64,000 bases of DNA, taken from the NCBI GenBank assembly GCA_963677595.1, contig OY782041.1, forward strand, positions 2,720,001 to 2,784,000, given 5' to 3'. Positions 1,427 through 19,009 of this stretch are shown piece after piece (within the stretch, counting starts at the first letter, position 1; every line of letters begins with the position of its first letter). Source of the stretch: Spirochaetia bacterium. GTDB lineage: Bacteria > Spirochaetota > Spirochaetia > CAKZLE01. The translations under genes were made by a program, and so were the position numbers. Below the pieces are notes generated by a model. It saw only the letters and a program-made list of their open reading frames with translations, did not search any database and was not told the DNA's origin.

Positions 1427-2155
1427 TTACGGCCGGTGGTTCCAGCTGCAGAGGCGTCGCTCGAGCAGCGCGAAGAGGCCGAAGAGGAGGGATCCGAGCA
1501 GGCTCAATGATATGATGCCCGCATACATGTCCAGGTAATCGAGCCGTATCCACCCATCCATGATGTACCACCCCAGGCCGGTGACCGAGGCGAAGGTCTC
1601 TGCCAGGAATAGGACCGCTGCGGCGGTCCCGGTCGAGATACGCAGCGCGGTGAAGAGGTTCGGCAGGATCGCCGGGATGATCACATGCCGGAGTATCTCG
1701 AATCTCCCCGCCCCGAGACTCCTGATCGAGTCGATGTATCGCTCATCGATCGCATGGGCGGCATCCCTGACCACGAAGAAGAGCTGGAAGGTGATGACGA
1801 TCGTGATGAAGATGACCTTCGAGAGGTCGTTCAGTCCGAAGAAGAGCATGATCACCGGCAGCAGCGCGACCTTCGGGATCGGGTAGAGCGCCCCCGCGGC
1901 GGGGCTGATGAGGGCGTGGGCCCTCCGGTTCCTCCCTGCTGCCAATGCGGCGGGGACTGCCAGGAGTGAGGCGGCTCCGATCGCGAAGATGATCCTCTCT
2001 GCCGAGATCGCCGTATGGACCAGGAGCCTCCCGTGGAGGAACTCCTCAGCAGTCCTGATGACGGCATCTATCGGGGTCGGGAGGAAGGGCTTTGCGATCA
2101 GCAAAGATGCCAGGTGCCAGATGACTGTCAGGATGAGCAGGGCAAGTACCTTCAT
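1427..2155 (-). CDS. ABC transporter permease, SsuC/TauC/NitT family
   Basis: Hydrophobic; YPIPKVALLP and EAA-like loop 'DSIRSLGAGRFEILRHVIIPA'; GLGWYI. Confidence 0.88.
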   Translation of the reverse strand: MKVLALLILTVIWHLASLLIAKPFLPTPIDAVIRTAEEFLHGRLLVHTAISAERIIFAIGAASLLAVPAALAAGRNRRAHALISPAAGALYPIPKVALLPVIMLFFGLNDLSKVIFITIVITFQLFFVVRDAAHAIDERYIDSIRSLGAGRFEILRHVIIPAILPNLFTALRISTGTAAAVLFLAETFASVTGLGWYIMDGWIRLDYLDMYAGIISLSLLGSLLFGLFALLERRLCSWNHRP

Positions 2156-2889
2156 GCCTCAAGACCTCCCTTCAGTGCGGACCTGATCGTCCGGACCTGC
2201 TGAAAATAGGCCTCATCGGTCCGTGAGAGGGCTCCCGGTAGACGAGAGAAGCTGCGGGTGAAGGACGAGATCCCGTTCTCGGGGTCCTTCTCCATGAGAT
2301 GGACCTCCTCACTGAGGAAGGCGGCCTCCTCGATGCTGTGGGTGACCATCAGCACCGTCATATGGTGCGCCTCCTGGATGCGGAGCAGCAGCTCCTGCAT
2401 CTGCTCCCGCTTCATGGCATCGAGGGATGAGAAGGGCTCATCCATCAGCAGGATCGAGGGGTTGAGCACCAGCGTCCGCGCGATCGCGACCCGCTGCCGT
2501 TCACCTCCCGAGATCGCCTGGGGATAGGAATCTCTCAGGTGCGAGATCCCGAGCTCCTCCATCACCCCGTCAGTCAGGCGTCGGATCGTCTTCCGGTCCC
2601 TGCCCTGTATCTTCAGTCCCAAGCCTATGTTCTCACCCACGCGTTTCCACGGGAAGAGCCCGTAATCCTGGAGGATGATCGCCGTCCGGACCTCCTCGGC
2701 CGACCCGGGGATCTCGATAGACCCCGAGTCAGGCTTCAGGAGCTCGCTGATGAGATAGAGCAAGGTGGTCTTCCCGCAGCCGGAGGGCCCGATGATGCCA
2801 TGAACCTTCTCTCTCTCGAAGGTATGGCTCAACTCCTGGAAGATGGGATCTCCCCCAGGATAGGCGAACTGCAGGGAGTCCAGCTTCAC
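2152..2889 (-). CDS. ABC transporter ATP-binding protein, SsuB/TauB family
   Basis: Walker A GPSGCGKTT, LQDYGLFPW, signature ISGGERQR, Walker B LLMDEPFSSLD, VTH. Confidence 0.92.
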   Translation of the reverse strand: MKLDSLQFAYPGGDPIFQELSHTFEREKVHGIIGPSGCGKTTLLYLISELLKPDSGSIEIPGSAEEVRTAIILQDYGLFPWKRVGENIGLGLKIQGRDRKTIRRLTDGVMEELGISHLRDSYPQAISGGERQRVAIARTLVLNPSILLMDEPFSSLDAMKREQMQELLLRIQEAHHMTVLMVTHSIEEAAFLSEEVHLMEKDPENGISSFTRSFSRLPGALSRTDEAYFQQVRTIRSALKGGLEA

Positions 2890-3845
2890 GGCTGCAGGAA
2901 CTCCAGGTCCCAGTCCGGGTCGAAGAGGTCCGAGAAGTCTGACCGGGGACCGATCAGCCCCTTACCAGCCATCCAGTCAGCTACTGCTGAGATCTCCAGG
3001 TCTGCCGGGAGCCTGGGGGTCCCGTAGGTGACGAACTCGTAGGCATCCCTGACCGGTGCAGGGAAGCCTGCATGGTCGATGAGGAAGTCACGGTAGCCGT
3101 CCGGATCGGCATCGATACGGGAGGCAGCCTCCGCATAGGCTTTGTAGAGGGCCTCCATGTTGGCGCGTTTCGTCTGGACCACATCAGCTGTGAAGATGAG
3201 GATGCCGGGAGCACTCGGGAGGATCGTCGTGTCGATGATCGGTCTCGCACCGCGAGCGATCACGAGGGAGTAGAGCGGCTCCGGCAGCGTCGCTGCGTCG
3301 AGGCCTCCCTGGAGCAGCAGCTCCATGCGGATGGGGATCTTCGGTACTGCGGTGAGCCCCAGATCGTCGGTCGGTACCCCCTGGTCCTCGAGCAGGGCAT
3401 ATACGGCATACTCGATGATCGTGTTCGAGGAGATCCCGTTCGTTTTACCGATGAGGTCCTTCGGCTCCCTGATACTCGAGTCCGGGGAGGCTGCGATACC
3501 GTACCGGCCCTTCGTGTCAGAGGTGATCGTGATGTCGATCCCGGCCTCCTCCAGGAAGAGGGCTGCCAGGGTGTCGCCGATGAAGCCGTCTATCTCCCCG
3601 GCCTGGAAGGCTGCATCCCGTTCCACCGGACTGTGGAAGGAGACAAGCTCCACTTCAGCCCCATTGGTCTCGAAGAGCGACTCATACTCAGCCACGAGGA
3701 AGGGAAGGGAATCGGCATCGGGGAGTACCCCGAGCCTGATCGGTTCGAGGGAGGTCTCCGTAACACCTCCCGCGGTAAGGGCAGCAGTCGCTGCGGAGAG
3801 GATCAGTATGATCCCGATGATTCTCATTACACTACGTATTCTCAT
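2886..3845 (-). CDS. ABC transporter substrate-binding protein (SsuA/THI5-like)
   Basis: Signal peptide, IRLGVLPDADSLP, F.S..ERDAAFQAG.IDG, DAATLPEP; overlaps ATPase gene. Confidence 0.85.
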   Translation of the reverse strand: MRIRSVMRIIGIILILSAATAALTAGGVTETSLEPIRLGVLPDADSLPFLVAEYESLFETNGAEVELVSFHSPVERDAAFQAGEIDGFIGDTLAALFLEEAGIDITITSDTKGRYGIAASPDSSIREPKDLIGKTNGISSNTIIEYAVYALLEDQGVPTDDLGLTAVPKIPIRMELLLQGGLDAATLPEPLYSLVIARGARPIIDTTILPSAPGILIFTADVVQTKRANMEALYKAYAEAASRIDADPDGYRDFLIDHAGFPAPVRDAYEFVTYGTPRLPADLEISAVADWMAGKGLIGPRSDFSDLFDPDWDLEFLQP

Positions 3846-3951
3846 AATTACTCCATTAACTCATTTCTCTTGGTATATTTGAAACAGGGATGCAGCTCGT
3901 GCTGTCGCCTGTAGTATGTGGATGCCTCGATGATCATAGGTGCGTCACCTC

Positions 3952-4824
3952 TCACAGGTAGACCTCCAGGACGATGATGATGAGGAAGAGGACGCTGACG
4001 ATCTCGTTTATATGATAGGAGGCCCGCTTCACCTGCGTGAGGTTCTTCGGGGCGACGATGAGGTGCTCATAGGTGATCAAGGCCGTGATGGGGACGAGCC
4101 CGGTGTAGAAGATCCAGCTCACCGGGTAGAACCAGGCGATCGCTGCCAGGCAGACAAGGGCCGCAGCATGGGCGAGGGTGGAGATGACCAGCGCGCCATG
4201 CGCCCCGAAACGGGCCGGTACGGAGTGCAGTCCCTCCCTGCGGTCGAACTCGATATCGAGACAGGCATAGATGATGTCGAAGCCCGCGACCCAGAGCGTC
4301 ACAGCAGCGGCGATGGGGAAGAACCGCAGTTCGATCGACCCCGTCAGGGCGATCAGCGTACCCATCGGCGCGATCGCCACGCAGGCGCCGAGGATGAAGT
4401 GCGAGAGCCAGGTGAACCGCTTGCTGTAGGAGTAGAGGATGATCATCCCTGCCGCGACCGGTGTGAGGAGCAGGCAGAGGGGGTTGAGCATGTAGGCTGA
4501 GAAGAGCAGGACCAGCGTACAGAAGAGGATGAAGAGGGCGAGGTCCTTCTGCTTGAGCAGTCCTGAGACCAGGTGCCGGGCTGCAGTCCTCGGGTTCCTC
4601 GCATCGATCTTGCGGTCGACTACCCGGTTGAGGGCATTCGCCCCGTTCCGGCCGGCGGTGACTGCCAGCAGGATCCAGAGCAGTTTCCCGAAGGGGACCT
4701 TCCCCTGTGTTTCCAGGAGCATGGCCGCCAGGGCAAAGGGGAGGGAGAAGAGCGTATGCTCGATCATGACCGCCTCCGAGATGAAGGCGAGCTTCCGTCC
4801 GATACCGATCCCTTCCCGGTTCAC
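3952..4824 (-). CDS. ubiA: UbiA-family prenyltransferase (MqnP-like)
   Basis: EHTLFSLPFA, NRVVDRKIDARNPRT, YSYSKRFT, WVAGFDIIYACLD..FDR..GLHSVP. Confidence 0.9.
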   Translation of the reverse strand: MNREGIGIGRKLAFISEAVMIEHTLFSLPFALAAMLLETQGKVPFGKLLWILLAVTAGRNGANALNRVVDRKIDARNPRTAARHLVSGLLKQKDLALFILFCTLVLLFSAYMLNPLCLLLTPVAAGMIILYSYSKRFTWLSHFILGACVAIAPMGTLIALTGSIELRFFPIAAAVTLWVAGFDIIYACLDIEFDRREGLHSVPARFGAHGALVISTLAHAAALVCLAAIAWFYPVSWIFYTGLVPITALITYEHLIVAPKNLTQVKRASYHINEIVSVLFLIIIVLEVYL

Positions 4825-6266
4825 AGGCCGAGATCCTCCCAGATCGCATCGACTCTCTCCCGTACGTCCTCACTCATCGTGATATCATCGGGCCAGGGTC
4901 GGGTATGCCCGTCCATCGGCCCCTTCTTCGTGGCATCGATCCCGATCCGGGTGCCGTAGAGGGGCGTCGGGGAGGCATGGTCGAGGGCGTCGAGGGGACC
5001 GTCGGAGAAGATGAGGTCCCGCTTCCCGTCGATGTTGTTGAAGACCTTCCACATGACCGTCGACAGGTCATGCACATCGACGGAGCTGTCGACGATGATG
5101 ATCATCTTCGTGTACATCATCTGGCCGAGCCCCCAGATGCTGTGCAGGACCTTCCGTACCTGCCCGGGGTAGCGTTTGTGTATCGACACGATAGCGCAGT
5201 TATGGAAGACCCCTTCGAGGGGTAGTTCCATATCGACGATCTCGGGTATGAGCTGTCTGAGGAGCGGCAGGAAGAGCCGCTCGGTCGCCTTGGCCATATA
5301 GCAGTCCTCCATCGGGGGCTTCCCGACGATGGTGGCATGGTAGACCGGCTGCTCCTTCCGGGTGATGCAGGTCACATGGAAGACCGGGTATTCATCCTGG
5401 AGGGAGTAGTAGCCGGTATGGTCCCCGAAGGGGCCTTCTGTCCTGAAGGGTTCAGCCGGGTCGACATAGCCCTCAAGGACGAACTCCGCATGGGCTGGGA
5501 CCTTGAGGTCGTTGGTGATGCACTTCACCATCTCGACCGGGGCTCCCCTGAGGAAACCGGCAAAGAGGATCTCGTTGATGCCGGGGGGCAGGGGGGCAGT
5601 CGCCGCATAGGTGATCGACGGGTCACAGCCTATCGCCACAGAAACCGGCATCTTCTCGCCCCGTGACCGGTATTTCTCGAAGATACTCGACCCGTCTTTG
5701 TGGATATGCCAGTGCATGCCCGTCGTATCCTTTGAGAACCGCTGCATCCGGTACATGCCCATGTTCGAGGAACCGGTATCGGGGTCTTTGGTGAAGACGG
5801 CAGGCAGGGTGATGAACGGGCCGCCGTCACCGGGCCAGCAGGTCAGGATCGGCAGGGTGAAGAGATCCGGCTCCTGCTCGATCACCTGCTGGCAGGGGGC
5901 CTTCTTCACCGTCTTCGGGAAGAAGAGCCTCACATACTTGAGTTTCGGGATGATCGCAGTCAGGTCGATGGACCGGGCCTGGGAGAAGGCGAACTCGATG
6001 AGTTCCCCGATCTCGTCGGCCTTCGCGTCGAGTGACTCAGCCTCGAGGGCGAGCGCCATACGCTCATACGAGCCCATCGCGTTCATAAGTACCGGGAACT
6101 TGGATCCCTGCACCTGCTCGAAGAGCAGCGCAGGGCCATCCTTCTTGCTTACCCGGTCAGTGATCTCGGTGATCTCGAGGTAGGGATCCACGGGATGGGT
6201 GATCCGTTTGAGCTGGCTTGATTCTTCCAGCACCTGTATGAATGATAGCAGATCTTTATATGCCAT
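4821..6266 (-). CDS. ubiD: UbiD-family prFMN decarboxylase (MqnL-like menaquinone decarboxylase)
   Basis: WPGDGGPFIT, NMGMYRMQ, GMHWHIHKDG, EGPFGDHTGYY, GKPPMED, EGVFHN, DALDHAS, GIDAT. Confidence 0.92.
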   Translation of the reverse strand: MAYKDLLSFIQVLEESSQLKRITHPVDPYLEITEITDRVSKKDGPALLFEQVQGSKFPVLMNAMGSYERMALALEAESLDAKADEIGELIEFAFSQARSIDLTAIIPKLKYVRLFFPKTVKKAPCQQVIEQEPDLFTLPILTCWPGDGGPFITLPAVFTKDPDTGSSNMGMYRMQRFSKDTTGMHWHIHKDGSSIFEKYRSRGEKMPVSVAIGCDPSITYAATAPLPPGINEILFAGFLRGAPVEMVKCITNDLKVPAHAEFVLEGYVDPAEPFRTEGPFGDHTGYYSLQDEYPVFHVTCITRKEQPVYHATIVGKPPMEDCYMAKATERLFLPLLRQLIPEIVDMELPLEGVFHNCAIVSIHKRYPGQVRKVLHSIWGLGQMMYTKMIIIVDSSVDVHDLSTVMWKVFNNIDGKRDLIFSDGPLDALDHASPTPLYGTRIGIDATKKGPMDGHTRPWPDDITMSEDVRERVDAIWEDLGL

Positions 6267-6299
6267 AACTATAGTTATATTCCATTTAACGGAGGAATG

Positions 6300-6329
6300 A
6301 AAGGACTACCCGTTCCCAGGTAGTCCTTT
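6300..6329 (-). terminator. Intrinsic terminator-like hairpin downstream of the FMN-binding lipoprotein gene
   Basis: AAAGGACTACC-N8-GGTAGTCCTTT, 11-bp inverted repeat. Confidence 0.65.
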
Positions 6330-6378
6330 ACATCATAGGTTTTTAGGAGTATCCAGCATCAGATGCCGGTTCACTCGC

Positions 6379-7671
6379 TTATTCGGCCTCCACAGGTCCT
6401 GCAGCCAGTGCCTCGGCAGCAAGCTCAAAGAGGGAATTCACATGGATCGATGCTCCGGCGATCTCATCGACATGACCTTCGTCATCTGAGTAAACCACAG
6501 CTGACGGGTCCTGGATCTGGATCAGGTAAGCTTCAGCGGCAACAGCCTGTTCATGCCATTCAGCTATGGCTCCGCCGTGAGCGACCATCCCATAATTTCC
6601 TTCAGCGGAGTAGGTCTTCTTGTCGTTGCCGTCTGCATCAAGGGGGTTCCAGCTCACTGAGAAGATCCTCCCGTCGAGAACTGACAGGTCCACGACGTCC
6701 TTCCATCCGTTATCGCCCATCTCGCCCTCTGCATGGTAGGTACCGTCTGCATAGGGACCTGTGACGACAGGAGCTGACGCAAGGGCCTCGGCGGCGAGTT
6801 CGAAGAACTCGGTCACATGGATGGAGACACCGGCGATAGCATCAGTATGGCCTTCGTCATCGCTATAGGTGATAGCTGCAGGATCCTGGGTCTCAAGCAG
6901 ATAGGCTTCAGCAGCGGCAGCCTGTTCATGCCACTCAGCCTGGGCGTCGCCGTAGGCGACCATACCGTATGCCCCGCTTTCAGACCTGACTTTCTTCAGG
7001 GTACCGCCGTCAGTGCTTGCACCGTTCCAGCTGGCTGCCACGATGTTGCCGTTCACGACAGTGAGGTCAACTGCATATTTCCAGCCCGAACCTGAGAACT
7101 CAGGCTGCTCAGCATGGAAATGGCCGTCTGTATAGGGTCCCCGCCCTGCAGGACCGGCTGCCATGGCTTCCTCAGCGAGGTTGAAGAATTCAGCTACATG
7201 GATCGAGACCCCCGAAATAGCGTCAGTATGCCCTTCAGCATCGGTGTAGGTGATGGCTGCGGGATCCTGGGTCTCGACGAGGTATGCCTCAGCACGTTCA
7301 GCCTGCTCATGCCATTCTGCCTGTGCCCCGCCGAAAGCGACCATGTTGTACCGTCCCTTGGATGAGACACTCTTCTTGTCTTCCCCGCCGTTGACGTTGG
7401 CGCCGTTCCAGTCAGCGGAGACGATCTTGCCACCGTCGACGGTGATGGTTGCCATATACTTCCAACCGGTACTTCCGAAGCCGTCTTCCTGGGCAAAGTA
7501 GATACCGTCAGCATATGCGGCGGCTGCTTCAGCCTTCGGAGCAGGTTCTGCCGCAGGTGCGGGAGCTGCTGCCGGTGCAGGTGCTGCTTCCTCTTTCGCG
7601 CAGCCTACGAATACCAATACAAGAGACAGGCACAGCAAGAGTACCAATCCTTTTTGTAGAAAAAATCTCAT
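6379..7671 (-). CDS. Lipoprotein with three tandem FMN-binding (flavinylation) domains, PplA-like
   Basis: Lipobox FVGC (Cys24), Ala/Pro linker, three ~125-aa repeats Y.DG.Y/F...W..QA...QDP...D.I[SA]G[VA]S; adjacent apbE. Confidence 0.85.
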   Translation of the reverse strand: MRFFLQKGLVLLLCLSLVLVFVGCAKEEAAPAPAAAPAPAAEPAPKAEAAAAYADGIYFAQEDGFGSTGWKYMATITVDGGKIVSADWNGANVNGGEDKKSVSSKGRYNMVAFGGAQAEWHEQAERAEAYLVETQDPAAITYTDAEGHTDAISGVSIHVAEFFNLAEEAMAAGPAGRGPYTDGHFHAEQPEFSGSGWKYAVDLTVVNGNIVAASWNGASTDGGTLKKVRSESGAYGMVAYGDAQAEWHEQAAAAEAYLLETQDPAAITYSDDEGHTDAIAGVSIHVTEFFELAAEALASAPVVTGPYADGTYHAEGEMGDNGWKDVVDLSVLDGRIFSVSWNPLDADGNDKKTYSAEGNYGMVAHGGAIAEWHEQAVAAEAYLIQIQDPSAVVYSDDEGHVDEIAGASIHVNSLFELAAEALAAGPVEAE

Positions 7672-7748
7672 AACACACTCTCCTTACAGATTCTTCTTTT
7701 AACTTAGCAATATAATAAGCTATTTATTTATCGATAGCAAGTAGCACT

Positions 7749-7777
7749 TTGACATAACGCACCTTTGCTGGTATCTT
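7749..7777 (+). promoter_or_regulatory. Sigma70-type promoter, probably leaderless, for the NusG-II/EetA-like gene
   Basis: TTGACA(7749-54)-17 nt-TATCTT(7772-77) with TGn extension, 6 nt before ATG 7784, no Shine-Dalgarno. Confidence 0.65.
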
Positions 7778-7783
7778 CATCTC

Positions 7784-8158
7784 ATGAGACGAGTACGGAT
7801 CGGGGATATCATAATCGGTATCCTGTCATTGGCTGTCATCTTACTCATTGGGATCGAGTCCTGGTCACGGTCAGGCGGGAGTCCCGAACTCCATATACAG
7901 GTCGATGATGACAATTTCGTCTATTCCCTCGCTGCTGACCAGCACCTCGAGATCTCCGGGCCGATCGGTACCACCTATGTCACGATCGAGGACGGGCACG
8001 TCCATGTCGATGACTCTCCCTGCACGCAGAAGATCTGCGTAGCCGCAGGGGAGATCTCCCGGACCGGGGAGTGGATCATCTGTCTCCCGAACCATGTCTT
8101 CATCACCATAGAGGGGGTCGAGGAGACCTCGAAGGAAGTAGATGATGTTGTCTTCTGA
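7784..8158 (+). CDS. NusG domain II-containing membrane-anchored protein (EetA-like)
   Basis: N-terminal TM 'GDIIIG', G.IG...V.I.DG...V.DSPC.QKICV..G.IS..GEWIICLPNHVFITI. Confidence 0.85.
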   Translation: MRRVRIGDIIIGILSLAVILLIGIESWSRSGGSPELHIQVDDDNFVYSLAADQHLEISGPIGTTYVTIEDGHVHVDDSPCTQKICVAAGEISRTGEWIICLPNHVFITIEGVEETSKEVDDVVF

Positions 8159-9293
8159 GCTGCATGGGAAGAGGGCACTCCCCGTTGGGCTGATCGCACA
8201 GCTCGGGGCACTGGCACTCTTCCTCTCGACGATCGAGTACATGATCCCGAAACCGATCCCCTTCATGCGCCTCGGGCTGGCGAACGTCCCGATCATGCTC
8301 GCCCTCCCGCTGCTCGACCCCGCGGGGTTCTTCCTGCTCGTGCTGATGAAGATCCTCGGGCAGGCCCTGGTGAACGGGACGTTATTCTCCTATATCTTCC
8401 TCTTCTCCCTCTGCGGGTCGGTCTCGAGCAGCCTCGTGATGTTCCTCCTCTACCGCCGGCTCGGCAGGTTCGTCTCCTACCTGGGGATCAGTATGGCCGG
8501 TGCCTTGACGAGCAACCTCGTCCAGCTCCTGCTCTCCCGCTATATCATGTTCGGGCCCTCGGTCTGGATCATCGCCCCGCCGTTCCTGATCATGGGGTTG
8601 GTCACCTCCATCGTGTTGGGGCTCTTCGTCATGCGATTCTCTACGCAATCAGCCTGGTTCGCCGGGAAACTGCTGAACGGCAGTGAACCGGATGACCGCT
8701 ATGACCCGGCCGCCCCGGGCGGCTTCTCCTATGACCGTAGGGTCCTCATCGGGCTCCTTGCCCTCCCGGCATTCCTGCTCCAGCAGCGGCTCCCGGGAAC
8801 CCTGATCATCACCGTATGTGCGGTCATCCTTGCCGTGACCCACGGCAGGCGGTTCCGCCTCCTGCCAAACCTCCTGGTGATCATCTCCGTCACCGCAGCA
8901 AACCTGCTGCAGAAGAACGGGATCATCCTGACAGAGATCCTCGGCTTCCCGATCACCCTCGGGGCCCTGGAGCTGGGACTGAAGAAGGCCCTGACCCTGA
9001 TAGGATTGATCTACATCTCCCAGTTCATGGTCTCGAACAGGCCGCGTATCCCCGGGAGGCTCGGTGCGCTCATCTCCCTGCAGCTTTTCTACTTCGAGCG
9101 GATCACCGAGTCATGGGATCGGAAAGCCCAGGGGAACCTCCTGGGTAGGATCGATACGCTGCTCTTCACTGTCGAGGGCGCTGAGTATGCGAGTGAGGCG
9201 GGAACGGGGAGAGGCAAAGAGCCTGCTGTCGGCTGGCAGTGGTCTTTCGTGGTGATCAGCTGGGGAGTCCTGGTTGCGGGGTTCGTGCTCTAG
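8142..9293 (+). CDS. Gx transporter / heptaprenyl diphosphate synthase component I family (EetB-like) with extra EcfT/CbiQ-like C-terminal membrane domain
   Basis: LSTIEYMIPKPIPFMRLGLAN, GTLFSYIFLFSL.G, GISMAGALTSNLVQL; C-terminal 'GIILTEILGFPITLGALELGL'. Confidence 0.8.
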   Translation: MMLSSELHGKRALPVGLIAQLGALALFLSTIEYMIPKPIPFMRLGLANVPIMLALPLLDPAGFFLLVLMKILGQALVNGTLFSYIFLFSLCGSVSSSLVMFLLYRRLGRFVSYLGISMAGALTSNLVQLLLSRYIMFGPSVWIIAPPFLIMGLVTSIVLGLFVMRFSTQSAWFAGKLLNGSEPDDRYDPAAPGGFSYDRRVLIGLLALPAFLLQQRLPGTLIITVCAVILAVTHGRRFRLLPNLLVIISVTAANLLQKNGIILTEILGFPITLGALELGLKKALTLIGLIYISQFMVSNRPRIPGRLGALISLQLFYFERITESWDRKAQGNLLGRIDTLLFTVEGAEYASEAGTGRGKEPAVGWQWSFVVISWGVLVAGFVL

Positions 9294-10354
9294 CGGAAGG
9301 TGTAGGAATCATCCTGGAGGGTCAGGGTTATATCCCCTCCGGTCATGCCGGCACTCATCAGGAGCTCCTTGTCTGTCGTGACGAACACTGCCTCTGTACC
9401 TTCGTATGAATCCACAAGCTCCATGCCCCGTTCGATCCCGAGCGAGAACGCCGCCGTGGAGAGGGCATCAGCGAGGAAGGAGTCTTCCGTGATGATGGAG
9501 ACACCGAGCAGTCCCGATTCCACGGGGTAGCCTGTCGAGGTATCGAGAATATGGTGGTAGCGGACATCGTCGACGATGAAATACCGTTCATAGACACCGG
9601 AGGTGACCACCGCGTGTTCGGTCATGGCAGCGATCGCCAGGTACTCCCCCCGATCGGAGAGGGGGTCCTGGATCCCGATCTTCCATCGTGACCCGTCAGG
9701 CTTGGTCCCGACGGTGAGGACGTTCCCTCCCAGGTTGACGATGGCAGTCCCGATCCCGCGGTCGAGCAGGACCTCACGGACCGCATCCGCGGCATACCCC
9801 TTGGCGATCGCCCCAAGGTCGAGGGCCATCCCCGCCCTCGGCAGGAGCACGGAACCGGAGGCCTCATCGATCTCGACCTCCCGGTAGTCAACGTAGGCGA
9901 GGAGGTCAGTGATCTCCTGCGCTCCCGGAATCCTGGCATCATCGCTGCCGATCCCCCAGGCACTGACGAGCGGCCCTATGGTAGGGTCGAAGGCTCCATC
10001 ACTCACCTCGGCGATCAGGAGGGCCTCTTTGAGCACCTGCAGGGTGTCTTCGCTGAGTTTGGTGTAGATGCCGGACCCGGCCCGCTCATTGATCAGGGAG
10101 ATCTCGCTGTCGGCGATACTCCTGCTCATGAGCTGCTCGATCTCCCTGATCCTGTCGAAGGCGGCCGTGAAGTCAGCCTCCTCATGGTCGGAGTAGATCG
10201 TGATCCTGCAGGAGGTCCCGAGCAGCAGTTCACTCTCTGATTCAGGTGCTGCTGAAGTCGGGGTAGATTCAGCCTGCCGTGTGCAGGAGATACTAAAAAA
10301 AATTACAAAAAAACTAATGATTAGAGAAATAATTATCGACACTCTATTTTTCAT
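9290..10354 (-). CDS. apbE: FAD:protein FMN transferase (ApbE/FmnB), lipoprotein
   Basis: Lipobox SISC; LLGT, GAFDPTIGPLV..W, LDLGAIAKGYAAD, NLGGN, TSGVYERY, HHILD..TGYP, ADALST. Confidence 0.95.
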   Translation of the reverse strand: MKNRVSIIISLIISFFVIFFSISCTRQAESTPTSAAPESESELLLGTSCRITIYSDHEEADFTAAFDRIREIEQLMSRSIADSEISLINERAGSGIYTKLSEDTLQVLKEALLIAEVSDGAFDPTIGPLVSAWGIGSDDARIPGAQEITDLLAYVDYREVEIDEASGSVLLPRAGMALDLGAIAKGYAADAVREVLLDRGIGTAIVNLGGNVLTVGTKPDGSRWKIGIQDPLSDRGEYLAIAAMTEHAVVTSGVYERYFIVDDVRYHHILDTSTGYPVESGLLGVSIITEDSFLADALSTAAFSLGIERGMELVDSYEGTEAVFVTTDKELLMSAGMTGGDITLTLQDDSYTFR

Positions 10355-10447
10355 ACGTTATACTCTTCTTGAATGGTAAGGTATTATGTACGATTTATCG
10401 GTACATGTGCAAGATGTTAAATTTATATACTGGATCGGGGTTTTAAT

Positions 10448-12337
10448 ATGAACAAAAAGAGAGTTGTAGTCCTGGGTGGCGGTTATGCCGGTGTGCATGC
10501 CGTAAAGATACTCCTGAAGACGCTTAAGGGTCTGAAGGATCAGACTGAGATCGTTCTTATCGACAAGAATGAGTACCATACGCTGATGACCGAGCTTCAC
10601 GAGGTTGCCGGCGGCAGGGTGGAGGAGGAGTCCGTGAAGGTCTCCTACAAGAGGATCTTCGCAGGAAGGGACGTGAAGGTGATCAAGGATGAGATCGATG
10701 AGATCGATTTCGATAACCGTAAGCTGATCTCAGCCCATGCAACCTATGACTTCGACCAGCTGCTGATCTCTACCGGTGCCGAGGCCGCTGACTTCGGGGT
10801 CCCGGGGATCAGGGAACATGCCCTGATGCTCTGGAGCCTTGATGACGCCATCGCCATCAGGGAGCATGTCAGGGCGACTGTAGAGGCCGCCTCTGATGAG
10901 AAGGACCCCGAGAAGAGGAAGGAACTGATGACCTTCGTCGTCGCCGGTGCGGGATTCACCGGTGTCGAGATGGTCGGGGAGCTCATCGAATGGCTCCCGA
11001 TCCTCTGCGACGAGTATGAAGTGGATCATTCCGAGATCACCCTGATGAACATCGAGGGACTCGGCAAGATCCTCAACGTCCTCCCTGACAAGCCAAGGAA
11101 GAAGGCCGAGAAGTACATGAAGAAGAAGGGTGTCGACATCATGGTCAACTCCCTGATCGTCGAGGCTGATGATGACGGCTTCAAGCTGAAGAGCGGCGAA
11201 TATATCAAGACGAAGACCCTCATCTGGACCTGCGGCGTCCGGGGTAACCGGTTCTGTGAACGGCTCCCGCTCACGGACGGGAAGGTCGGCCGGAAGCAGG
11301 TCAACGAGTTCATGGGCTGCCCGGACCACAAGAACGTCTTCATCGCCGGGGACGGGTGCTGGTACCTGGAGAACGGGTCCCCGCTTCCCCAGATCGTCGA
11401 GGCAGCCGAGCAGACCGGTGCTACCGCAGCCCATGCCATGACTGCCAACATCTGCGAGGAACTCGGGATCGCGTACAAGGAGCCGAAGCCGTTCAAGTCA
11501 CGGTTCCATGGCCACATGGTCTCGATCGGCGGCCGGTACGGCGTCTCCCACAACATGAACATGTCGATGTCCGGGCTCTTCGCCATGGGCATCAAGCATG
11601 TGGTCAACGTCATCTACCTCAACAGCATCGCCGGCCTCAACGGCTGGTGGACCTACCTCAAGCATGAGATCTTCGATATCAAGAACAACCGCTCGTTCAT
11701 CGGCGGGCTGGCAGCAAACAAGGTGCCTGCCTACTGGACCACCTTCCTGAGGATCTTCCTCGGGGTCATGTGGTTCATCGAAGGGGTGAAGAAGATCATC
11801 GAGGGCTGGCTGACCGACGCGACCGGTTCCCATGTCTACTGGGTACAGGCTGCTGCTGATGCAGGCAGTGCTGCCAGTGAGGAGGCTGAGCAGGTCGCTG
11901 AGCAGGCGGTCGAGGCTGTACAGCAGTTCGCCCCGCCGTTGATCAGTGAACCGACTGCCCTCTATACCTGGGTCTCTGATACCTTCGTTGCGGCAGCTCC
12001 CTATTTCTTCCAGATACTCATCGTACTCGGTGAGGTCGGCCTCGGCCTCTGCTTCATCGGCGGGCTCTTCACCTTCCCTGCGGCAGTCGCCTCCATCGGG
12101 CTCTCGATCATGCTCATCATGGGTGCCATGGCAAGCAAGGAGATCCTCTGGTACATGGCTGTGGCCGTGGTGATGATGGGTGGTGCAGGCCGGTCGTTCG
12201 GTCTCGACTACTGGGTGATGCCGTGGCTGAAGAAGCAGTGGAACAAGACCTGGCTGGCTAAACGGACCCATCTCTTCATGGATGAACCCCAGTTCACACG
12301 CAAGCAGAAAGAGATGCGATCCAGGATCATGGACTAG
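10448..12337 (+). CDS. ndh: Type II NADH:quinone oxidoreductase with C-terminal DoxX-like membrane domain (FLEET Ndh2-like)
   Basis: VVVLGGGYAG, TELHEVAGGR, VAGAGFTGVEMVGEL, IWTCGV, IAGD, PQIVEAAEQTG; C-terminal LRIFLGVMWFIEGVKKI...GRSFGLDYWVMPWL. Confidence 0.9.
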   Translation: MNKKRVVVLGGGYAGVHAVKILLKTLKGLKDQTEIVLIDKNEYHTLMTELHEVAGGRVEEESVKVSYKRIFAGRDVKVIKDEIDEIDFDNRKLISAHATYDFDQLLISTGAEAADFGVPGIREHALMLWSLDDAIAIREHVRATVEAASDEKDPEKRKELMTFVVAGAGFTGVEMVGELIEWLPILCDEYEVDHSEITLMNIEGLGKILNVLPDKPRKKAEKYMKKKGVDIMVNSLIVEADDDGFKLKSGEYIKTKTLIWTCGVRGNRFCERLPLTDGKVGRKQVNEFMGCPDHKNVFIAGDGCWYLENGSPLPQIVEAAEQTGATAAHAMTANICEELGIAYKEPKPFKSRFHGHMVSIGGRYGVSHNMNMSMSGLFAMGIKHVVNVIYLNSIAGLNGWWTYLKHEIFDIKNNRSFIGGLAANKVPAYWTTFLRIFLGVMWFIEGVKKIIEGWLTDATGSHVYWVQAAADAGSAASEEAEQVAEQAVEAVQQFAPPLISEPTALYTWVSDTFVAAAPYFFQILIVLGEVGLGLCFIGGLFTFPAAVASIGLSIMLIMGAMASKEILWYMAVAVVMMGGAGRSFGLDYWVMPWLKKQWNKTWLAKRTHLFMDEPQFTRKQKEMRSRIMD

Positions 12338-12350
12338 CCCGGGGTACGAC

Positions 12351-13325
12351 GTGATACCATTCTGGGAAGAGGAGGCTGCCCTTGAAGGGCAGCTTCAGCA
12401 GGTCACCGACCTGATCCTGGAGCTCATCCAGGACGCAAATGATTATATCTCATCATATCTCCGGTCCATGGTGGAATCCCAGGGCAAGATGCTCAGGCCT
12501 GCCCTAGTCATGATCGGGTCCCGGCTCGGAAATGATCAGGATGAATCCAGGGCCGTCAGGCAGGCGGCCCTCCTTGAGATGATCCACCTGGCCTCCCTCG
12601 TCCATGACGACATCATCGATGATGCCGACATGAGGAGGGGAATCCCGTCGCTCCAGAAGCAGCTTGGGGTACGACGTGCCGTCGTTGCCGGGGACTACCT
12701 CCTCGTGCGGGCGATTTCCCTGCTGACGGACAAGGGGCGGACCCTAGAGCCTGCCGTCATGTCCCATGCGATCGGCAGGCTGTGCACCAGCGAGATCGAC
12801 CAGGACAGCGAGGAGTGGGACTTCTTCATCAGCCCGACGCATTACCTTCGCAGGATCGCCGGGAAGACAGCGACCCTCTTTGCCCTCAGTGCCTTCTCCG
12901 GTGCGTTCATCAGCGATGCTGAGCCCCTGGTCCAGCGGAGGATGCATGAGTTCGGTTACTGTCTCGGCATGGCATTCCAGATACGCGACGACATCCTTGA
13001 CCTGAAGGGGACGAAGGCCTCCATGGGGAAACCCGTAGGCAAGGATATCACATCGGGAGTCGCCACCCTGCCGCTGATCTATGCGCTCGAACGGGATGAG
13101 ACCGGTTCCCTGCAGCGCCTGCTGCAGGGAAAGCGGAAGTTCTCCAAGCGGAAGGTAGGGCTCATCATCAACCGGATCCTTGACTCCGGGGCACTGGCTT
13201 CAGCAGAATCTCTCTCAGAGAAGTACCTGAACCGTGCTTTAGCCCTCCTCGGTGAATTACCCGACCAGGAGACTGCAAAGATCCTATCCCGGATGATCGA
13301 ACGTCTCGTTTCCCGGGTCAGTTAA
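12351..13325 (+). CDS. Polyprenyl (heptaprenyl) diphosphate synthase (HepT/DmkB-like); start uncertain
   Basis: GKMLRP, HLASLVHDDIIDDADMRRG, GKTATLF, GMAFQIRDDILD, GKPVGKDI..G..TLP. Confidence 0.92.
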   Translation: MIPFWEEEAALEGQLQQVTDLILELIQDANDYISSYLRSMVESQGKMLRPALVMIGSRLGNDQDESRAVRQAALLEMIHLASLVHDDIIDDADMRRGIPSLQKQLGVRRAVVAGDYLLVRAISLLTDKGRTLEPAVMSHAIGRLCTSEIDQDSEEWDFFISPTHYLRRIAGKTATLFALSAFSGAFISDAEPLVQRRMHEFGYCLGMAFQIRDDILDLKGTKASMGKPVGKDITSGVATLPLIYALERDETGSLQRLLQGKRKFSKRKVGLIINRILDSGALASAESLSEKYLNRALALLGELPDQETAKILSRMIERLVSRVS

Positions 13326-13396: not shown

Positions 13397-14866
13397 ATGG
13401 CACAGAACGCAGATATCGGATTGATCGGACTGGCTGTCATGGGACAGAACCTGGTGTTGAACATGAATGATCACGGCTACACCGTCGCCGTGTACAACCG
13501 GACGACCTCGAAGGTTGATGAGTTCAAGGCGACTGCCGCCGCCGGCCGGGAGACGATCATCGCCACCCATTCGGTCGAGGAGTTCATCAGTACGCTGGGG
13601 CGGCCGAGAAAGGTCATGCTCATGGTCAAGGCCGGCAAGGTCGTTGACCTCTTCATAGAACAACTAATTCCCTACCTCGAACCCGGTGATATCATCATCG
13701 ATGGGGGGAACTCCCAGTTCGGCGATACCGAACGGCGGGTCGCAACCCTGGCTGAGAAGGGTATCCTCTTCATCGGCTCCGGTATCTCCGGAGGCGAAGA
13801 GGGGGCGAGGCGAGGCCCTTCGATCATGCCGGGGGGTAACGCCGAGGCATGGCCTCTGGTGAAGGAGATCTTCCAGGGGATCGCCGCGAAGACCGATACC
13901 GGCGAGGCCTGCTGCGACTGGGTCGGCGAGGGTGGTGCCGGCCATTATGTGAAGATGGTCCATAACGGGATCGAGTACGGCGACATCCAGCTCATCGGCG
14001 AAGCATACCACCTGATGCATGAAGGGCTCTCCCTGGGCTACGATGAGCTGCACGATATCTTCTCCGAGTGGAATACCGGCGAGCTTGACAGCTACCTCAT
14101 CGAGATTACCCGCGACATCATGGCCTTCAAGGACACTGACGGCAGGCCGCTCGTGGAGAAGATCCTTGATACGGCAGGCCAGAAGGGGACCGGCAAGTGG
14201 ACGGGGATCAGCTCCCTGGAACTCGGTGTCCCGGTCTCCCTGATCTCCGAGGCGGTTTATGCGCGATGTCTCTCGGCGATGAAGGAGGAGCGTACGGCAG
14301 CCTCCCGTTTCTACGGGAAGCAGGATGGCGGTGCCGCGAAGCTGACGAAAGAAGAGAAGGCCGCCCTCATCGATGACATCAGGCAGGCATTGCTTGCCTC
14401 CAAGATCATCTCCTATGCACAGGGCTACATGCTCATGCGTGAGGCAGCCGCCCAGGAGGGTTGGGACCTCAACTTCGGCGGGGTAGCCCTCATGTGGCGT
14501 GAAGGCTGCATCATACGAAGCGTCTTCCTAGAGCACATCCGGGATGCCTATGAGAAGGACCCCGGGCTAAGCAGCTTGCTCATGGACAGCTATTTCAAGG
14601 AGCTGCTCCAGCGCTCTGAGGCTGCCTGGAGGCGGGTCGTCTCCTTTGCGGTGCAGCGAGCCATACCCGTGCCGGCTATCTCCTCGGCATTGACCTTCTT
14701 CGATGGGTACCGGACCGAACGGTTGCCTGCCAACTTGCTGCAGGCGCAGCGGGACTACTTCGGTGCGCATACCTATGAGAGGGTAGACGGCAAGAGGGGT
14801 GAGTTCCACCATACTAACTGGACCGGGACCGGCGGGGATGTCTCCTCGAGTACCTATGAGGTGTAG
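13397..14866 (+). CDS. gnd: 6-phosphogluconate dehydrogenase, decarboxylating
   Basis: IGLIGLAVMGQNL, GISGGEEGARRGPSIMPGG, YVKMVHNGIEYG, GQKGTGKWT, QAQRDYFGAHTY. Confidence 0.97.
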   Translation: MAQNADIGLIGLAVMGQNLVLNMNDHGYTVAVYNRTTSKVDEFKATAAAGRETIIATHSVEEFISTLGRPRKVMLMVKAGKVVDLFIEQLIPYLEPGDIIIDGGNSQFGDTERRVATLAEKGILFIGSGISGGEEGARRGPSIMPGGNAEAWPLVKEIFQGIAAKTDTGEACCDWVGEGGAGHYVKMVHNGIEYGDIQLIGEAYHLMHEGLSLGYDELHDIFSEWNTGELDSYLIEITRDIMAFKDTDGRPLVEKILDTAGQKGTGKWTGISSLELGVPVSLISEAVYARCLSAMKEERTAASRFYGKQDGGAAKLTKEEKAALIDDIRQALLASKIISYAQGYMLMREAAAQEGWDLNFGGVALMWREGCIIRSVFLEHIRDAYEKDPGLSSLLMDSYFKELLQRSEAAWRRVVSFAVQRAIPVPAISSALTFFDGYRTERLPANLLQAQRDYFGAHTYERVDGKRGEFHHTNWTGTGGDVSSSTYEV

Positions 14867-14884
14867 TTGCTGCTAATAAAAAGC

Positions 14885-14920
14885 AAAAGGCTGCAGTGGG
14901 GTAATCACTGCAGCCTTTTC
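14885..14920. terminator. Bidirectional intrinsic terminator between convergent genes
   Basis: AAAAGGCTGCAGTG-GGGTAAT-CACTGCAGCCTTTT. Confidence 0.85.
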
Positions 14921-14929
14921 AGGTGTATG

Positions 14930-15109
14930 CTACTTCTGACAGTCTGAGAACCAGAGGCAGTCTGTAAGACCGCAATTGGTTATCCCGCTGTCAAAGCAGG
15001 CAGCATTACCTTCTGCTTCCTGAATTGCACGGATCAGTTCCGTTTTCTTCTTCTTGCCCACTGACACATTGAGTGTCTTTGCGATTTCTTTGATTTCTTT
15101 TACTAACAT
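14930..15109 (-). CDS. Small 59-aa SAP/Rho-N-like domain protein with a four-Cys tail (absent from ORF track)
   Basis: Manual translation MLVKEIKEIAKTLNVSVGKKKKTELIRAIQEAEGNAACFDSGITNCGLTDCLWFSDCQK*; own promoter upstream and terminator downstream. Confidence 0.8.
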   Translation of the reverse strand: MLVKEIKEIAKTLNVSVGKKKKTELIRAIQEAEGNAACFDSGITNCGLTDCLWFSDCQK

Positions 15110-15115
15110 GCATAA

Positions 15116-15158
15116 ATCTTAGAGAGAAGCGGTTTGCGTGTCAAGAATACCGCTTCTC
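15116..15158 (-). promoter_or_regulatory. Leaderless sigma70 promoter with 10-bp inverted repeat bracketing the -35
   Basis: Minus strand TTGACA-17-TAAGAT-6 nt-ATG; GAGAAGCGGT(15124-33)/ACCGCTTCTC(15149-58). Confidence 0.65.
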
Positions 15159-15184
15159 CCTAGAGCGAAATAGCTGGTAATATG

Positions 15185-16378
15185 CTAATTAACCGCAGAT
15201 TCCAGTATCTTTTCCGAGTTGTAAAGCCTTGAAGTCCCGGTAATAAGCACCCCGATCATTGCTGAGAGCGAGATGACCGTGAGCAGGAGCTGCAGTATGG
15301 TCGAGGTCCCGAGGATCGCTCCCTTCATGAGGAATATCGAGTTCACGAAGGGTACGAGGAAGAGCAGCGGCTGTGTCGCCGGGTCGAAACTCATCGTCAG
15401 GACCCCCGTGAGCACCACGATGATGTAGATAGGCATCACGTAGCTCGTGGCTTCCTTGGCTGTCTTCGCCAGTGAGCCGAGTAGGACGATGATCGATGCT
15501 GCGAGCATGCTGGTGAAGGCGAGCGCGAAGAAGAGGGTGACCAGGGACGGGATGCTGAAGCCGGTGAAGTCGGTACCGTCAGTGAACATACCCCCGGTGG
15601 TGGAGAAGGCGATGAGCAGTCCTGCGAAGGTCATGAGGCTCGAGGCGATCCCGGCGCTCAGGACGTAGAGGACCTTCCCCAGTGCGATGGAAGACCTTGA
15701 TACCTGGTTCACCAGGATGATGGCAATACTCCCGCGCTCCTTCTCCCCGGCTGTGGTGTCGATCCCGACGCTCATGGAACCGGCGAAGGTGTAGATGATG
15801 ACCAGGTACGGGATCATCATGACGAGGAACTCAGTGCCCTGTGACTCCTCCGGTGCCGTGTCGACCCTGAAGGTCCTGATCGTGTAGAGCGAATCCAGGT
15901 CGAGCCCGACCGAGAGCAGGGTCTGGTTGGCTAGTACCTGATCATACCCCTGGAGGGCAGAGATGATCTGTCTTGATGCGAAGGATAACGCTTGGGATGT
16001 CGAATCATAGTAGATCGTGACATCGGCTTCGTCCCCGACCCGGTAGCCTTCGGGGAACTCGATGACCAGAGACCCTGGTGAAGGGGCCTGTGTCAGCTCG
16101 AAGTTGAGCTGCTTTGAGAGTTCTCCCTGAAGCCTGGGGTCATCGTTGTTCCTGATCTCCAGTGAGTAGACCTGCTCCTGGGCTTGGGCCTCCTGCCTGC
16201 TCATGACGGCATTCATGCCGATGAAGATCGCCGGCATGAGTACCAGGGGGAGGATGAGGGTCGCGAAGAGGGTCCGCCTGTCCTTGATGACGTTCCGCAG
16301 CTCCTTCCGGTAGATGATCATGGCGTCGCTGAACATCGAGCTCCTTGGCTTGGTTTGCTTTATTTGTCTATGCTTCAT
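15185..16378 (-). CDS. natB: ABC-2 type permease, NatB-like
   Basis: IYRKELRNVIKDRRTL, DTTAGEKERGSI, VSRSSIALGK, LAKTAKEATSY. Confidence 0.8.
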   Translation of the reverse strand: MKHRQIKQTKPRSSMFSDAMIIYRKELRNVIKDRRTLFATLILPLVLMPAIFIGMNAVMSRQEAQAQEQVYSLEIRNNDDPRLQGELSKQLNFELTQAPSPGSLVIEFPEGYRVGDEADVTIYYDSTSQALSFASRQIISALQGYDQVLANQTLLSVGLDLDSLYTIRTFRVDTAPEESQGTEFLVMMIPYLVIIYTFAGSMSVGIDTTAGEKERGSIAIILVNQVSRSSIALGKVLYVLSAGIASSLMTFAGLLIAFSTTGGMFTDGTDFTGFSIPSLVTLFFALAFTSMLAASIIVLLGSLAKTAKEATSYVMPIYIIVVLTGVLTMSFDPATQPLLFLVPFVNSIFLMKGAILGTSTILQLLLTVISLSAMIGVLITGTSRLYNSEKILESAVN

Positions 16379-17118
16379 GATACGATCCCCCGTTCCCGTG
16401 CAAGGTCGAAGAAGAGGTCATCCAGCCTGCCCGACGGCTGTGCTGAGAGGATGTCAGCCTTCTTCCCGTTAACCACGAGATCTCCCTCGAGGAGTATCCC
16501 GATATCATCACAGAGCATCTCCGCCTCCGAGAGGATGTGGGTGGAGAGGATCACGGTCTTCCCCCCGTCCCGGGAGTCCAGGAGGAAGTCGTTGACCACC
16601 TTCGTGGCGAGGATGTCGAGGTTGCTCGTCGGCTCATCGAAGATGATGACCTGCGGGTCGTGGATGATGCTGACGGCGATCGAGGTCTTCTGCTTCATGC
16701 CTGAGGAGAGCTTGTCGAGCGGCCGGTCGAGGTACTCCTCCATGCCGAGGCTCCCGGCGATAGAGACGATTCGCTCATCGATGAGCTCCCGCTTCATGTG
16801 GTTGAGTTCCCCGAAGAACCTGAGCGATTCCCGCGAGGAGAGGTTCCCTGAGAGTTTCATCTCCCCGGTAAGCAGCCCGATGCGGTCGCGGACAGCCCTG
16901 CTGTCACTGATCGTATCGAGCCCGTCAACGGTGATCGTCCCTGAATCGGGCTTCAGCAGGGTCGCGATGAGCCTGAGGCTCGTGGTCTTCCCTGCGCCGT
17001 TCGGGCCGAGCAGCCCGTATATCCTGCCGGGTTCAGCGGTGAAGGAGATACCGTTGAGTACCTCATTGCGCTGCTTCTTGGCCCGGAAGGACTTATGCAG
17101 TCCTTTCACTTCTACCAT
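16375..17118 (-). CDS. natA: ABC ATP-binding protein, NatA-like
   Basis: GLLGPNGAGKTTSLR, LSSGMKQK, HDPQVIIFDEPT, STH; GGAG 7 nt before ATG 17118. Confidence 0.82.
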   Translation of the reverse strand: MVEVKGLHKSFRAKKQRNEVLNGISFTAEPGRIYGLLGPNGAGKTTSLRLIATLLKPDSGTITVDGLDTISDSRAVRDRIGLLTGEMKLSGNLSSRESLRFFGELNHMKRELIDERIVSIAGSLGMEEYLDRPLDKLSSGMKQKTSIAVSIIHDPQVIIFDEPTSNLDILATKVVNDFLLDSRDGGKTVILSTHILSEAEMLCDDIGILLEGDLVVNGKKADILSAQPSGRLDDLFFDLARERGIVS

Positions 17119-17227
17119 GTACACACTCCATGTTCATACGTCTTGTTCACCAGATAGTGTATCATCTGCGCAATGGGTTGTACACCGGGATGAGGATTGC
17201 CGTCAACACCCCGTAAGAGAGCGATGG

Positions 17228-18832: not shown

Positions 18833-19009
18833 ATCGTACCTCCCGGTCTGGATTGTCTCTGTATCCTTACTATACAACCACCTGCAACAGAACGCAACAA
18901 CTATCATCTATGAGGATTTTCCCCATACATCTTGGCTGCCTCTTGACCGGAACCCGTATCGAAGCCATGATAGGACCTAGGCGGTAATACGAATAGGAGA
19001 GAAGATCGT

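Follow-up and report, generated by a model that had tools for sequence, protein, structure and literature searches.

A FLEET-type electron-transfer locus of a spirochaete without DmkA, adjoining late quinone enzymes and a candidate importer of quinone rings

Introduction

Flavin-based extracellular electron transfer (FLEET, or EET) in Listeria monocytogenes is encoded by an eight-gene cluster. Here we analyse a related locus in a bacterium of the class Spirochaetia, lying at 1427-13325 of a 64,000-nucleotide stretch of contig OY782041.1 (GCA_963677595.1, positions 2,720,001 to 2,784,000), which is called the window throughout. Like the Listeria cluster (PMC9973259), it brings together a type II NADH dehydrogenase with a membrane tail (Ndh2), the flavin transferase ApbE/FmnB, a PplA-like lipoprotein, EetA, EetB, an FmnA-like domain and a DmkB-like polyprenyl synthase. 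It differs in that DmkA, the MenA-type prenyltransferase of 1,4-dihydroxy-2-naphthoate (DHNA), is missing, with an MqnP-like prenyltransferase, an MqnL-type decarboxylase and an ATP-binding cassette (ABC) importer standing instead; in a predicted fusion of EetB and FmnA; in the three domains and non-canonical serine motifs of its lipoprotein; and in a double-membrane host in which no ring synthesis was found. In Listeria, EetB (PF07456) is the substrate subunit of an energy-coupling factor (ECF) system that exports flavin adenine dinucleotide (FAD) together with the ECF-T subunit FmnA (PMC9973259). FLEET has already been catalogued in spirochaetes, Data Set S1 of that paper labelling a Spirochaetia Ndh2 cluster 'EET' (row 1446), and the electron-export part of the present locus is ordinary. 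The same data set lists UbiD in at least five eetB neighbourhoods, including those of Halothermothrix and Maledivibacter, and the main text has no mention of UbiD, UbiA, MqnP or futalosine.

The quinone genes recall two published routes. As in the late futalosine pathway predicted for MqnP, MqnL and MqnM (PMC4746308), the decarboxylase passes the futalosine model, the UbiA protein is closest to MqnP, and relatives carry UbiX in the operon; in contrast to the late futalosine operon, UbiX is distant in this genome and an importer is attached, and whereas the gut genomes of PMC4746308 had mqnPLM only with the full pathway, mqnA, mqnC, mqnD and mqnE were not found here. In DHNA salvage by MenA or DmkA alone, described for Lactiplantibacillus plantarum and for anaerobes of the gut (PMC10746273, PMC5738691), a quinone auxotroph finishes a scavenged ring, coupled to Ndh2 and PplA, as is proposed here; the prenyltransferase of the window is of a different class and probably acts on the other ring isomer. 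Importers of quinone precursors were predicted in 2016 (PMC4746308) and called undescribed in 2017 (PMC5738691), and the route of ring uptake in L. plantarum was still unidentified in 2023 (PMC10746273). In a search of the openly readable literature, no account of a cassette of the mqnLP-ABC kind, or of a connection between one and FLEET, came to light. We argue, with somewhat better than even confidence, that the locus joins a FLEET-type system to a cassette that imports a ready-made naphthoquinone ring and finishes it to demethylmenaquinone.

Results

A FLEET locus with DmkA missing

All eleven genes of the locus are present and intact. The preliminary description had named an FMN-binding lipoprotein, a NusG-II protein, a Gx/HepS-like membrane protein, ApbE, NDH-2 and a polyprenyl synthase (FMN being flavin mononucleotide), and Pfam and NCBIfam models returned the families as first named. 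Its equation of these genes with PplA, EetA, EetB, FmnB, Ndh2 and DmkB of Listeria also holds for the last five, with the lipoprotein PplA-like, although it overlooked FmnA, which is predicted to be fused to EetB.

The EetB protein (8142-9293) is 383 amino acids long, twice the usual PF07456 domain, which matches residues 21-163; the gene ahead of it (7784-8158) matches PF07009, as expected of EetA. In a model built from 17 sequences (pLDDT, or predicted local distance difference test, 81), residues 11-181 aligned with the ECF-S chain 4huq_S (Z 12.6, root-mean-square deviation, rmsd, 3.1, 163 residues aligned) and residues 196-382 with the ECF chain 5d3m_D (Z 9.7, rmsd 4.1, 136 aligned), a moderate Z for a helical domain; against 5x41_Q, chain Q of CbiMQO, this C-terminal domain reached Z 6.7. 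We take both of the latter chains to be ECF T subunits, and the extra domain to have an ECF-T fold. These ECF matches came from a wide search, Foldseek giving no match at E ≤0.001, and Pfam CbiQ had no match in the protein and E 0.08 in one of 12 homologues. By fold, the gene is thus predicted to encode an EetB-FmnA fusion, which brings the Listeria FLEET functions represented in the locus to seven out of eight, DmkA being the missing one. Similar fusions occur in 16 further long homologues; split forms exist too, and in Marispirochaeta a separate CbiQ gene follows eetB.

An operational criterion for FLEET is an NADH dehydrogenase with a transmembrane helix within a flavinylation cluster (PMC8238504). 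In the window, Ndh2 matches PF07992, has two hydrophobic stretches within residues 509-558 and is encoded 93 bases from the ApbE gene. The DoxX tail earlier ascribed to it was matched only weakly (DoxD E 0.03, DoxX E 0.5). ApbE (PF02424, 308 bits) carries at its N-terminus the hydrophobic stretch of an export signal. The lipoprotein has a lipobox, and its residues 54-171 match PDB 2kzx (E 1e-41); NF041941 gave 63 bits against a cut-off of 325, and FMN_bind 18 bits, below its cut-off. A flavinylation-like motif ends each of its three domains (residues 150, 277 and 402), and these motifs are conserved in ten relatives. Because the same variants recur in those relatives, three of which have canonical forms only, flavinylation of the lipoprotein appears likely.

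Ndh2 has a flavinylation-like motif of its own, D-x-x-S-A-A-S at residue 471, between membrane stretches. Of 22 long Ndh2 homologues, 14 show the pattern within residues 470-578, with as many as four copies in one protein, where the background rate is 0.002 per 100 residues. Ndh2 itself may carry periplasmic FMN. Elsewhere in the genome (coordinates prefixed C1) lie an NQR/Rnf-like cluster (C1:2134588-2138428, identified by reading the sequence) and a full Rnf cluster (C1:3810860-3815853), each with an FMN-binding subunit; the single ApbE probably serves them as well.

The locus is not one operon: its genes are transcribed in four blocks forming two divergent pairs, with pplA-mqnL-mqnP-ABC to the left and eetA-eetB to the right, then apbE to the left and ndh2-dmkB to the right. 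A promoter/terminator scan placed promoter-like sites at 7712-7777 and 10336-10411. The hairpin between pplA and mqnL (6300-6329), possibly a terminator or RNA stabiliser, was not among the terminators predicted by the scan. Given the overlap of dmkB with ndh2 and the shorter length of its homologues, the true start of dmkB is probably the in-frame GTG at 12351. The closest homologues of the window proteins are from Spirochaetota, which supports the spirochaete origin suggested earlier.

MqnL-type and MqnP-like enzymes without a recognised ring source

The preliminary description had further proposed that the locus has no MenA-like gene but MqnL- and MqnP-like enzymes, co-oriented with an importer, and the searches agree. 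On TIGR03701, the model for the futalosine decarboxylase, the window UbiD scores 648 bits and clears the cut-off of 496; it fails the ubiquinone UbiD model (434 against 788). The window UbiA passes TIGR01475 (ubiA_other); the MqnP models follow with 261, 244 and 227 bits, all below their cut-offs but ahead of proteobacterial UbiA (103 bits) and the MenA models (23 bits). No second gene of the UbiA family was found in the genome (a single PF01040 match), and since this one scores so low on MenA, DmkA is absent from locus and genome alike. The ubiD, ubiA and ABC genes share one orientation, with successive gaps of -4, 106, -4 and -4 bases.

UbiX is encoded 1.4 Mb from the locus, at C1:4162122-4162691 (TIGR00421, 266 bits). 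The region around it (C1:4141123-4162691) also holds two VdcC-like UbiDs, a second NitT/TauT ABC system and several flavodoxin-like reductases, and is probably an aromatic-acid decarboxylation island; as candidates for MqnL, the two UbiDs were rejected as VdcC-like (one of the two was scored).

The early quinone pathway, whose absence had been held to favour scavenging, was sought in the whole genome, a single 4.33-Mb contig (95.4% complete, 6.3% contaminated). There was no match to menB and none above cut-off to menD or menG, and no genuine match to mqnA/D or mqnC/E, MqnB not being among the families searched for. Hits to TIGR00423, considered as futalosine radical SAM genes, proved to be hydrogenase maturases (HydE above cut-off), and a weak match to PF02621, the MqnA/D family, belongs to an ABC system, as a binding protein whose gene precedes those of a permease and an ATPase. 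With none of these early men or mqn genes found, the late enzymes therefore stand without a recognised internal source of the ring. The one strong FAD_binding_2 match in the genome lies among NAD-synthesis-like genes (recognised by eye).

The importer and its binding protein

The importer had been described as SsuABC-type. It is of the NitT/TauT class with an SsuA-like fold in its binding protein, yet this protein misses the SsuA_fam cut-off (84 bits against 163), and taurine and nitrate binding models had no match to it in a profile search. Its structure model (pLDDT 92.8) has the fold of SsuA, NrtA, TauA and PqqT (PDB 9B1U; PMC11331073), from which it differs in having 14-21% identity and scores below all family cut-offs. 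SsuA structures were the top Foldseek hits; PqqT was the best single-sequence PDB match (E 1e-5), with SsuA above PqqT by profile and structure, and an attempt to read the ligand from these folds gave no clear winner. PqqT binds the quinone PQQ (pyrroloquinoline quinone; PMC11331073) and offers a precedent only, for a quinone ligand in a NitT/TauT binding-protein fold. By gene linkage, the window protein is a candidate receptor for a quinone head group.

It is most improbable that the ABC system instead imports riboflavin, a sulfonate, nitrate or a thiamine precursor, whether for the flavin side of the locus or for something unrelated. The SsuA hits would fit such a role, as would the lack of any lumazine synthase match in the genome, from which flavin uptake is likely needed. 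However, in none of 28 members of the binding-protein family did the best score suggest a named equivalog, and the one FMN riboswitch of the genome (C1:2565596-2565719) stands in front of another ABC system, and the lipoprotein of that system matches 4iil of Treponema pallidum (E 5e-94), presumably the riboflavin binder RfuA. Neither the window nor five related loci contain an FMN riboswitch, and carriers of the binding protein are not enriched for auxotrophs (RibH in 32 of 51, against 73 of 150 others). With a separate transporter under an FMN riboswitch, riboflavin is therefore an unlikely cargo, and its import by the cassette was largely rejected on this ground and the lack of auxotroph enrichment. 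The riboswitch-headed transporter (L147, C1:2562000-2565719) belongs to the BMP family and resembles the riboflavin importer of Treponema, and the riboswitch was found in six of six family genomes. In T. pallidum, riboflavin is imported by the ABC system RfuABCD (PMC4436053).

Genomic partners of the importer

Linkage carries the assignment of the binding protein. In a survey of 201 Spirochaetia genomes at least 90% complete, in which related genomes are not independent and no significance is claimed, MqnL occurred in 25 genomes and the binding protein in 51, comprising all 25 with MqnL and 26 of the 176 others. The two genes lay within 2 kb of each other in 21 of the 25 and within 20 kb in 24, the last pair being split over contig ends; the ABC genes are thus linked to ubiA/ubiD in relatives, as the scavenging proposal had supposed. 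Among 409 relatives of the binding protein, the best 80 loci were examined, and MqnP and MqnL were present in 52 and UbiX in 61. The 25 loci with neither MqnP nor MqnL comprise 20 from genomes with MqnL elsewhere, two with menA in the locus and three on short or truncated contigs. In five loci (L034, L038, L045, L059 and L080, about 2000-10000) ubiX and the gene for the binding protein stand some 8 kb apart; in the two that were read (L034 and L059) the gap is filled by large secreted-looking proteins.

A second partner emerged from the 26 class loci without MqnL, nine of which have a MenA-like gene beside the importer; one of these nine passes the MenA cut-off and adds MenG, and four others that were scored fell below the cut-off. 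Two nearly complete FLEET loci (L102 and L128) have the order eetA-eetB-menA-like-ABC-apbE-ndh2-dmkB, with a MenA-like gene and ABC genes where the window has mqnLP and ABC genes. By this pattern the importer tracks quinone prenylation, whichever finishing chemistry goes with it, and does so within FLEET loci as well. The earlier view that UbiA/UbiD and the importer together take the place of DmkA needs amending. Since the importer is found in FLEET loci with MenA-like genes too, it is a front end common to both routes, and what replaces DmkA is MqnP together with MqnL. A quick tree of 123 binding proteins, with long branches and indicative of the clustering of partner labels rather than of co-evolution, placed the window protein in a supported group of 54, of which 47 are Mqn-linked and none MenA-linked. 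Divergent MenA-like genes transcribed away from the importer (L116-L119; 28-36% identity to true MenA) were seen in four spirochaete families.

Two further accounts of the cargo were considered. The first, that the cell builds the ring itself through early steps that went unrecognised, the cargo of the ABC system being some other requirement of quinone synthesis, we regard as very unlikely. It can draw on the fact that absence was judged by known families only, in an incomplete genome, and on Anaerovibrio genomes with both MqnC and the binding protein; but no early gene is conserved beside the cassette in the loci read, and MqnC was missing from all 25 MqnL genomes of the class and from all 36 other carriers outside the Selenomonadaceae (50 loci were tested of the best 80).

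The second, that a benzoate-type acid such as 4-hydroxybenzoate is imported and yields a prenylated phenol or benzoquinone, seems decidedly unlikely. U32 proteins can act as anaerobic hydroxylases, and U32-like and aminotransferase-like genes, recognised by eye, lie between the binding protein gene and dmkB/ndh2 at L019:12006-15181. A U32 gene also stands beside ubiX in Halothermothrix (PMC9973259, Data Set S1 row 737), and UbiA, UbiD and UbiX use 4-hydroxybenzoate in other pathways, as sister clades to MqnP and MqnL (PMC11874023). The window locus, however, contains no hydroxylase, the model scores given above favour the futalosine decarboxylase over ubiquinone UbiD and MqnP over proteobacterial UbiA, and the same binding-protein family adjoins MenA and MenG. 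The U32-like and aminotransferase-like genes possibly tailor a ring.

Linkage of the cassette to FLEET genes

Ndh2-like genes were found in 42 of the 51 binding-protein genomes and in 33 of the 150 others, counts that include non-independent kin. Apart from the window, the class has 24 MqnL regions, of which 16 were fetched; in eight of these the cassette adjoins at least two FLEET genes, as it does in the clostridial loci L061, L067, L076, L092, L093, L095 and L099. MqnL is absent from both same-genus genomes. A genome of the same family (G003) has FLEET without the cassette, and the majority of cassettes are found at a distance from FLEET genes, so that the cassette is an optional rather than an obligatory companion of FLEET.

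These two facts would also suit a cassette that salvages the ring for the general quinone pool, with its place behind pplA a matter of convenient clustering and FLEET independent of it, as would the hairpin between pplA and mqnL and the NQR/Rnf-like cluster at C1:2134588-2138428, which could use quinone too. We nevertheless judge this unlikely: the cassette is repeatedly adjacent to Ndh2, DmkB and ApbE genes, in differing gene orders and in both Spirochaetia and Clostridia, the FLEET polyprenyl synthase has a single weak paralogue in the genome (28% identity), and cytochrome bd had no match in the genome.

Proposed pathway

From the gene identities, genomic absences and linkage described above, we propose a salvage pathway that ends in flavin-based electron export and whose every biochemical step, from ligand and product to flux and terminal acceptor, is inferred. 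The ABC system would import a soluble aromatic acid, of which the likeliest is 1,4-dihydroxy-6-naphthoate set free by neighbouring cells that run the futalosine pathway. By homology, the tail would come from the polyprenyl synthase and be joined to the ring by the MqnP-like enzyme, and MqnL would remove the carboxyl group with prenylated FMN supplied by the distant UbiX. Since MenG had no match, the product would be demethylmenaquinone. By analogy with Listeria, Ndh2 would then use NADH to reduce demethylmenaquinone and hand electrons on to the three-domain lipoprotein, which would be flavinylated in the periplasm by ApbE with FAD exported by the EetB-FmnA fusion.

A broader proposal is more tentative, and we rate it as possible but short of probable: that the binding-protein family is the missing class of menaquinone-precursor importers, serving either the MqnP and MqnL route or the MenA route through isomer-specific subfamilies, and that its Mqn form reveals a cross-feeding in which 1,4-dihydroxy-6-naphthoate, an intermediate of the futalosine pathway, powers the flavin-based export of electrons by anaerobes among the spirochaetes and clostridia. 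The value of the locus lies in a well-supported and directly testable candidate importer for quinone rings, since it offers one soluble protein with a directly measurable ligand. Quinone cross-feeding shapes which anaerobes grow; to judge by this locus, late futalosine enzymes may be a source of quinone for FLEET, and such anaerobes could perhaps be cultivated or stimulated more readily when given the right ring isomer.

Several observations weigh against ring import and finishing for FLEET. On the enzyme side, the window UbiA is below all three MqnP cut-offs (227-261 bits against 375-430), UbiX is outside the operon, VdcB-like and near two other UbiDs, and the roles of MqnP and MqnL are themselves only predictions in PMC4746308. 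The absences were judged in a genome of 95.4% completeness and 6.3% contamination. The binding-protein fold names no ligand, with SsuA, NrtA, PqqT and others all at Z 24-27 and 14-19% identity. All three lipoprotein motifs end in serine and depart from the flavinylation consensus D-x-x-[S/T]-G-A-[S/T] (PMC12052999), and in L. plantarum dmkA and dmkB are reported to be dispensable for EET when quinone is added (PMC10746273). In the comparative data, the FLEET genes of G003 stand in the window's order, at 50-72% identity, while MqnL, the binding protein and MenA are all without a match there; 29 class genomes with Ndh2-like genes have neither the binding protein nor MenA; and 63 of the best 80 binding-protein loci have no FLEET gene within the fetched flanks, the other 17 including five weak Ndh2 hits (27-28%) in Anaerovibrio that are probably ordinary NADH dehydrogenases. 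Moreover, MqnC occurs in 10 of 14 Selenomonadaceae carriers of the binding protein, and 17 of the 26 class loci without MqnL have no prenyltransferase nearby.

Feature coordinates and neighbouring genes

Table 1. Features of the locus, in window coordinates.
Feature	Position	Strand	Basis
ABC permease, NitT/TauT class	1427..2155	-	PF00528; TauC/SsuC models below cut-off
ABC ATPase, NitT/TauT class	2152..2889	-	PF00005; top NCBIfam model taurine ATPase, below cut-off
Periplasmic binding protein, candidate receptor for a quinone head group	2886..3845	-	NMT1-like; linkage to MqnLP or MenA-like genes
MqnP-like aromatic prenyltransferase	3952..4824	-	TIGR01475 above cut-off; MqnP models below; Asp-rich motifs
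MqnL-type UbiD decarboxylase	4821..6266	-	TIGR03701, 648 bits, cut-off 496
Perfect 11-bp hairpin between lipoprotein gene and mqnL	6300..6329	-	Read from intergenic sequence
PplA-like lipoprotein, three repeated domains	6379..7671	-	NF041941, PDB 2kzx match, lipobox, motifs
EetA, NusG domain II, membrane-anchored	7784..8158	+	PF07009; same label in PMC9973259 Data Set S1
EetB (ECF-S) fused to predicted FmnA-like ECF-T domain; predicted FAD exporter	8142..9293	+	PF07456 and structure model
ApbE/FmnB flavin transferase	9290..10354	-	PF02424, motifs; only tblastn match in the genome
Ndh2, type II NADH dehydrogenase with membrane tail	10448..12337	+	PF07992, hydrophobic stretches, weak DoxD/DoxX, one flavinylation-like motif
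DmkB-like polyprenyl diphosphate synthase	12282..13325	+	PF00348, two DDxxD motifs

The genes flanking the locus in the window, at 1-1421 and 13397-20248, include trpBA, 6-phosphogluconate dehydrogenase, a NatAB-like ABC exporter pair, formate-tetrahydrofolate ligase and a nickel racemase of the LarA family.

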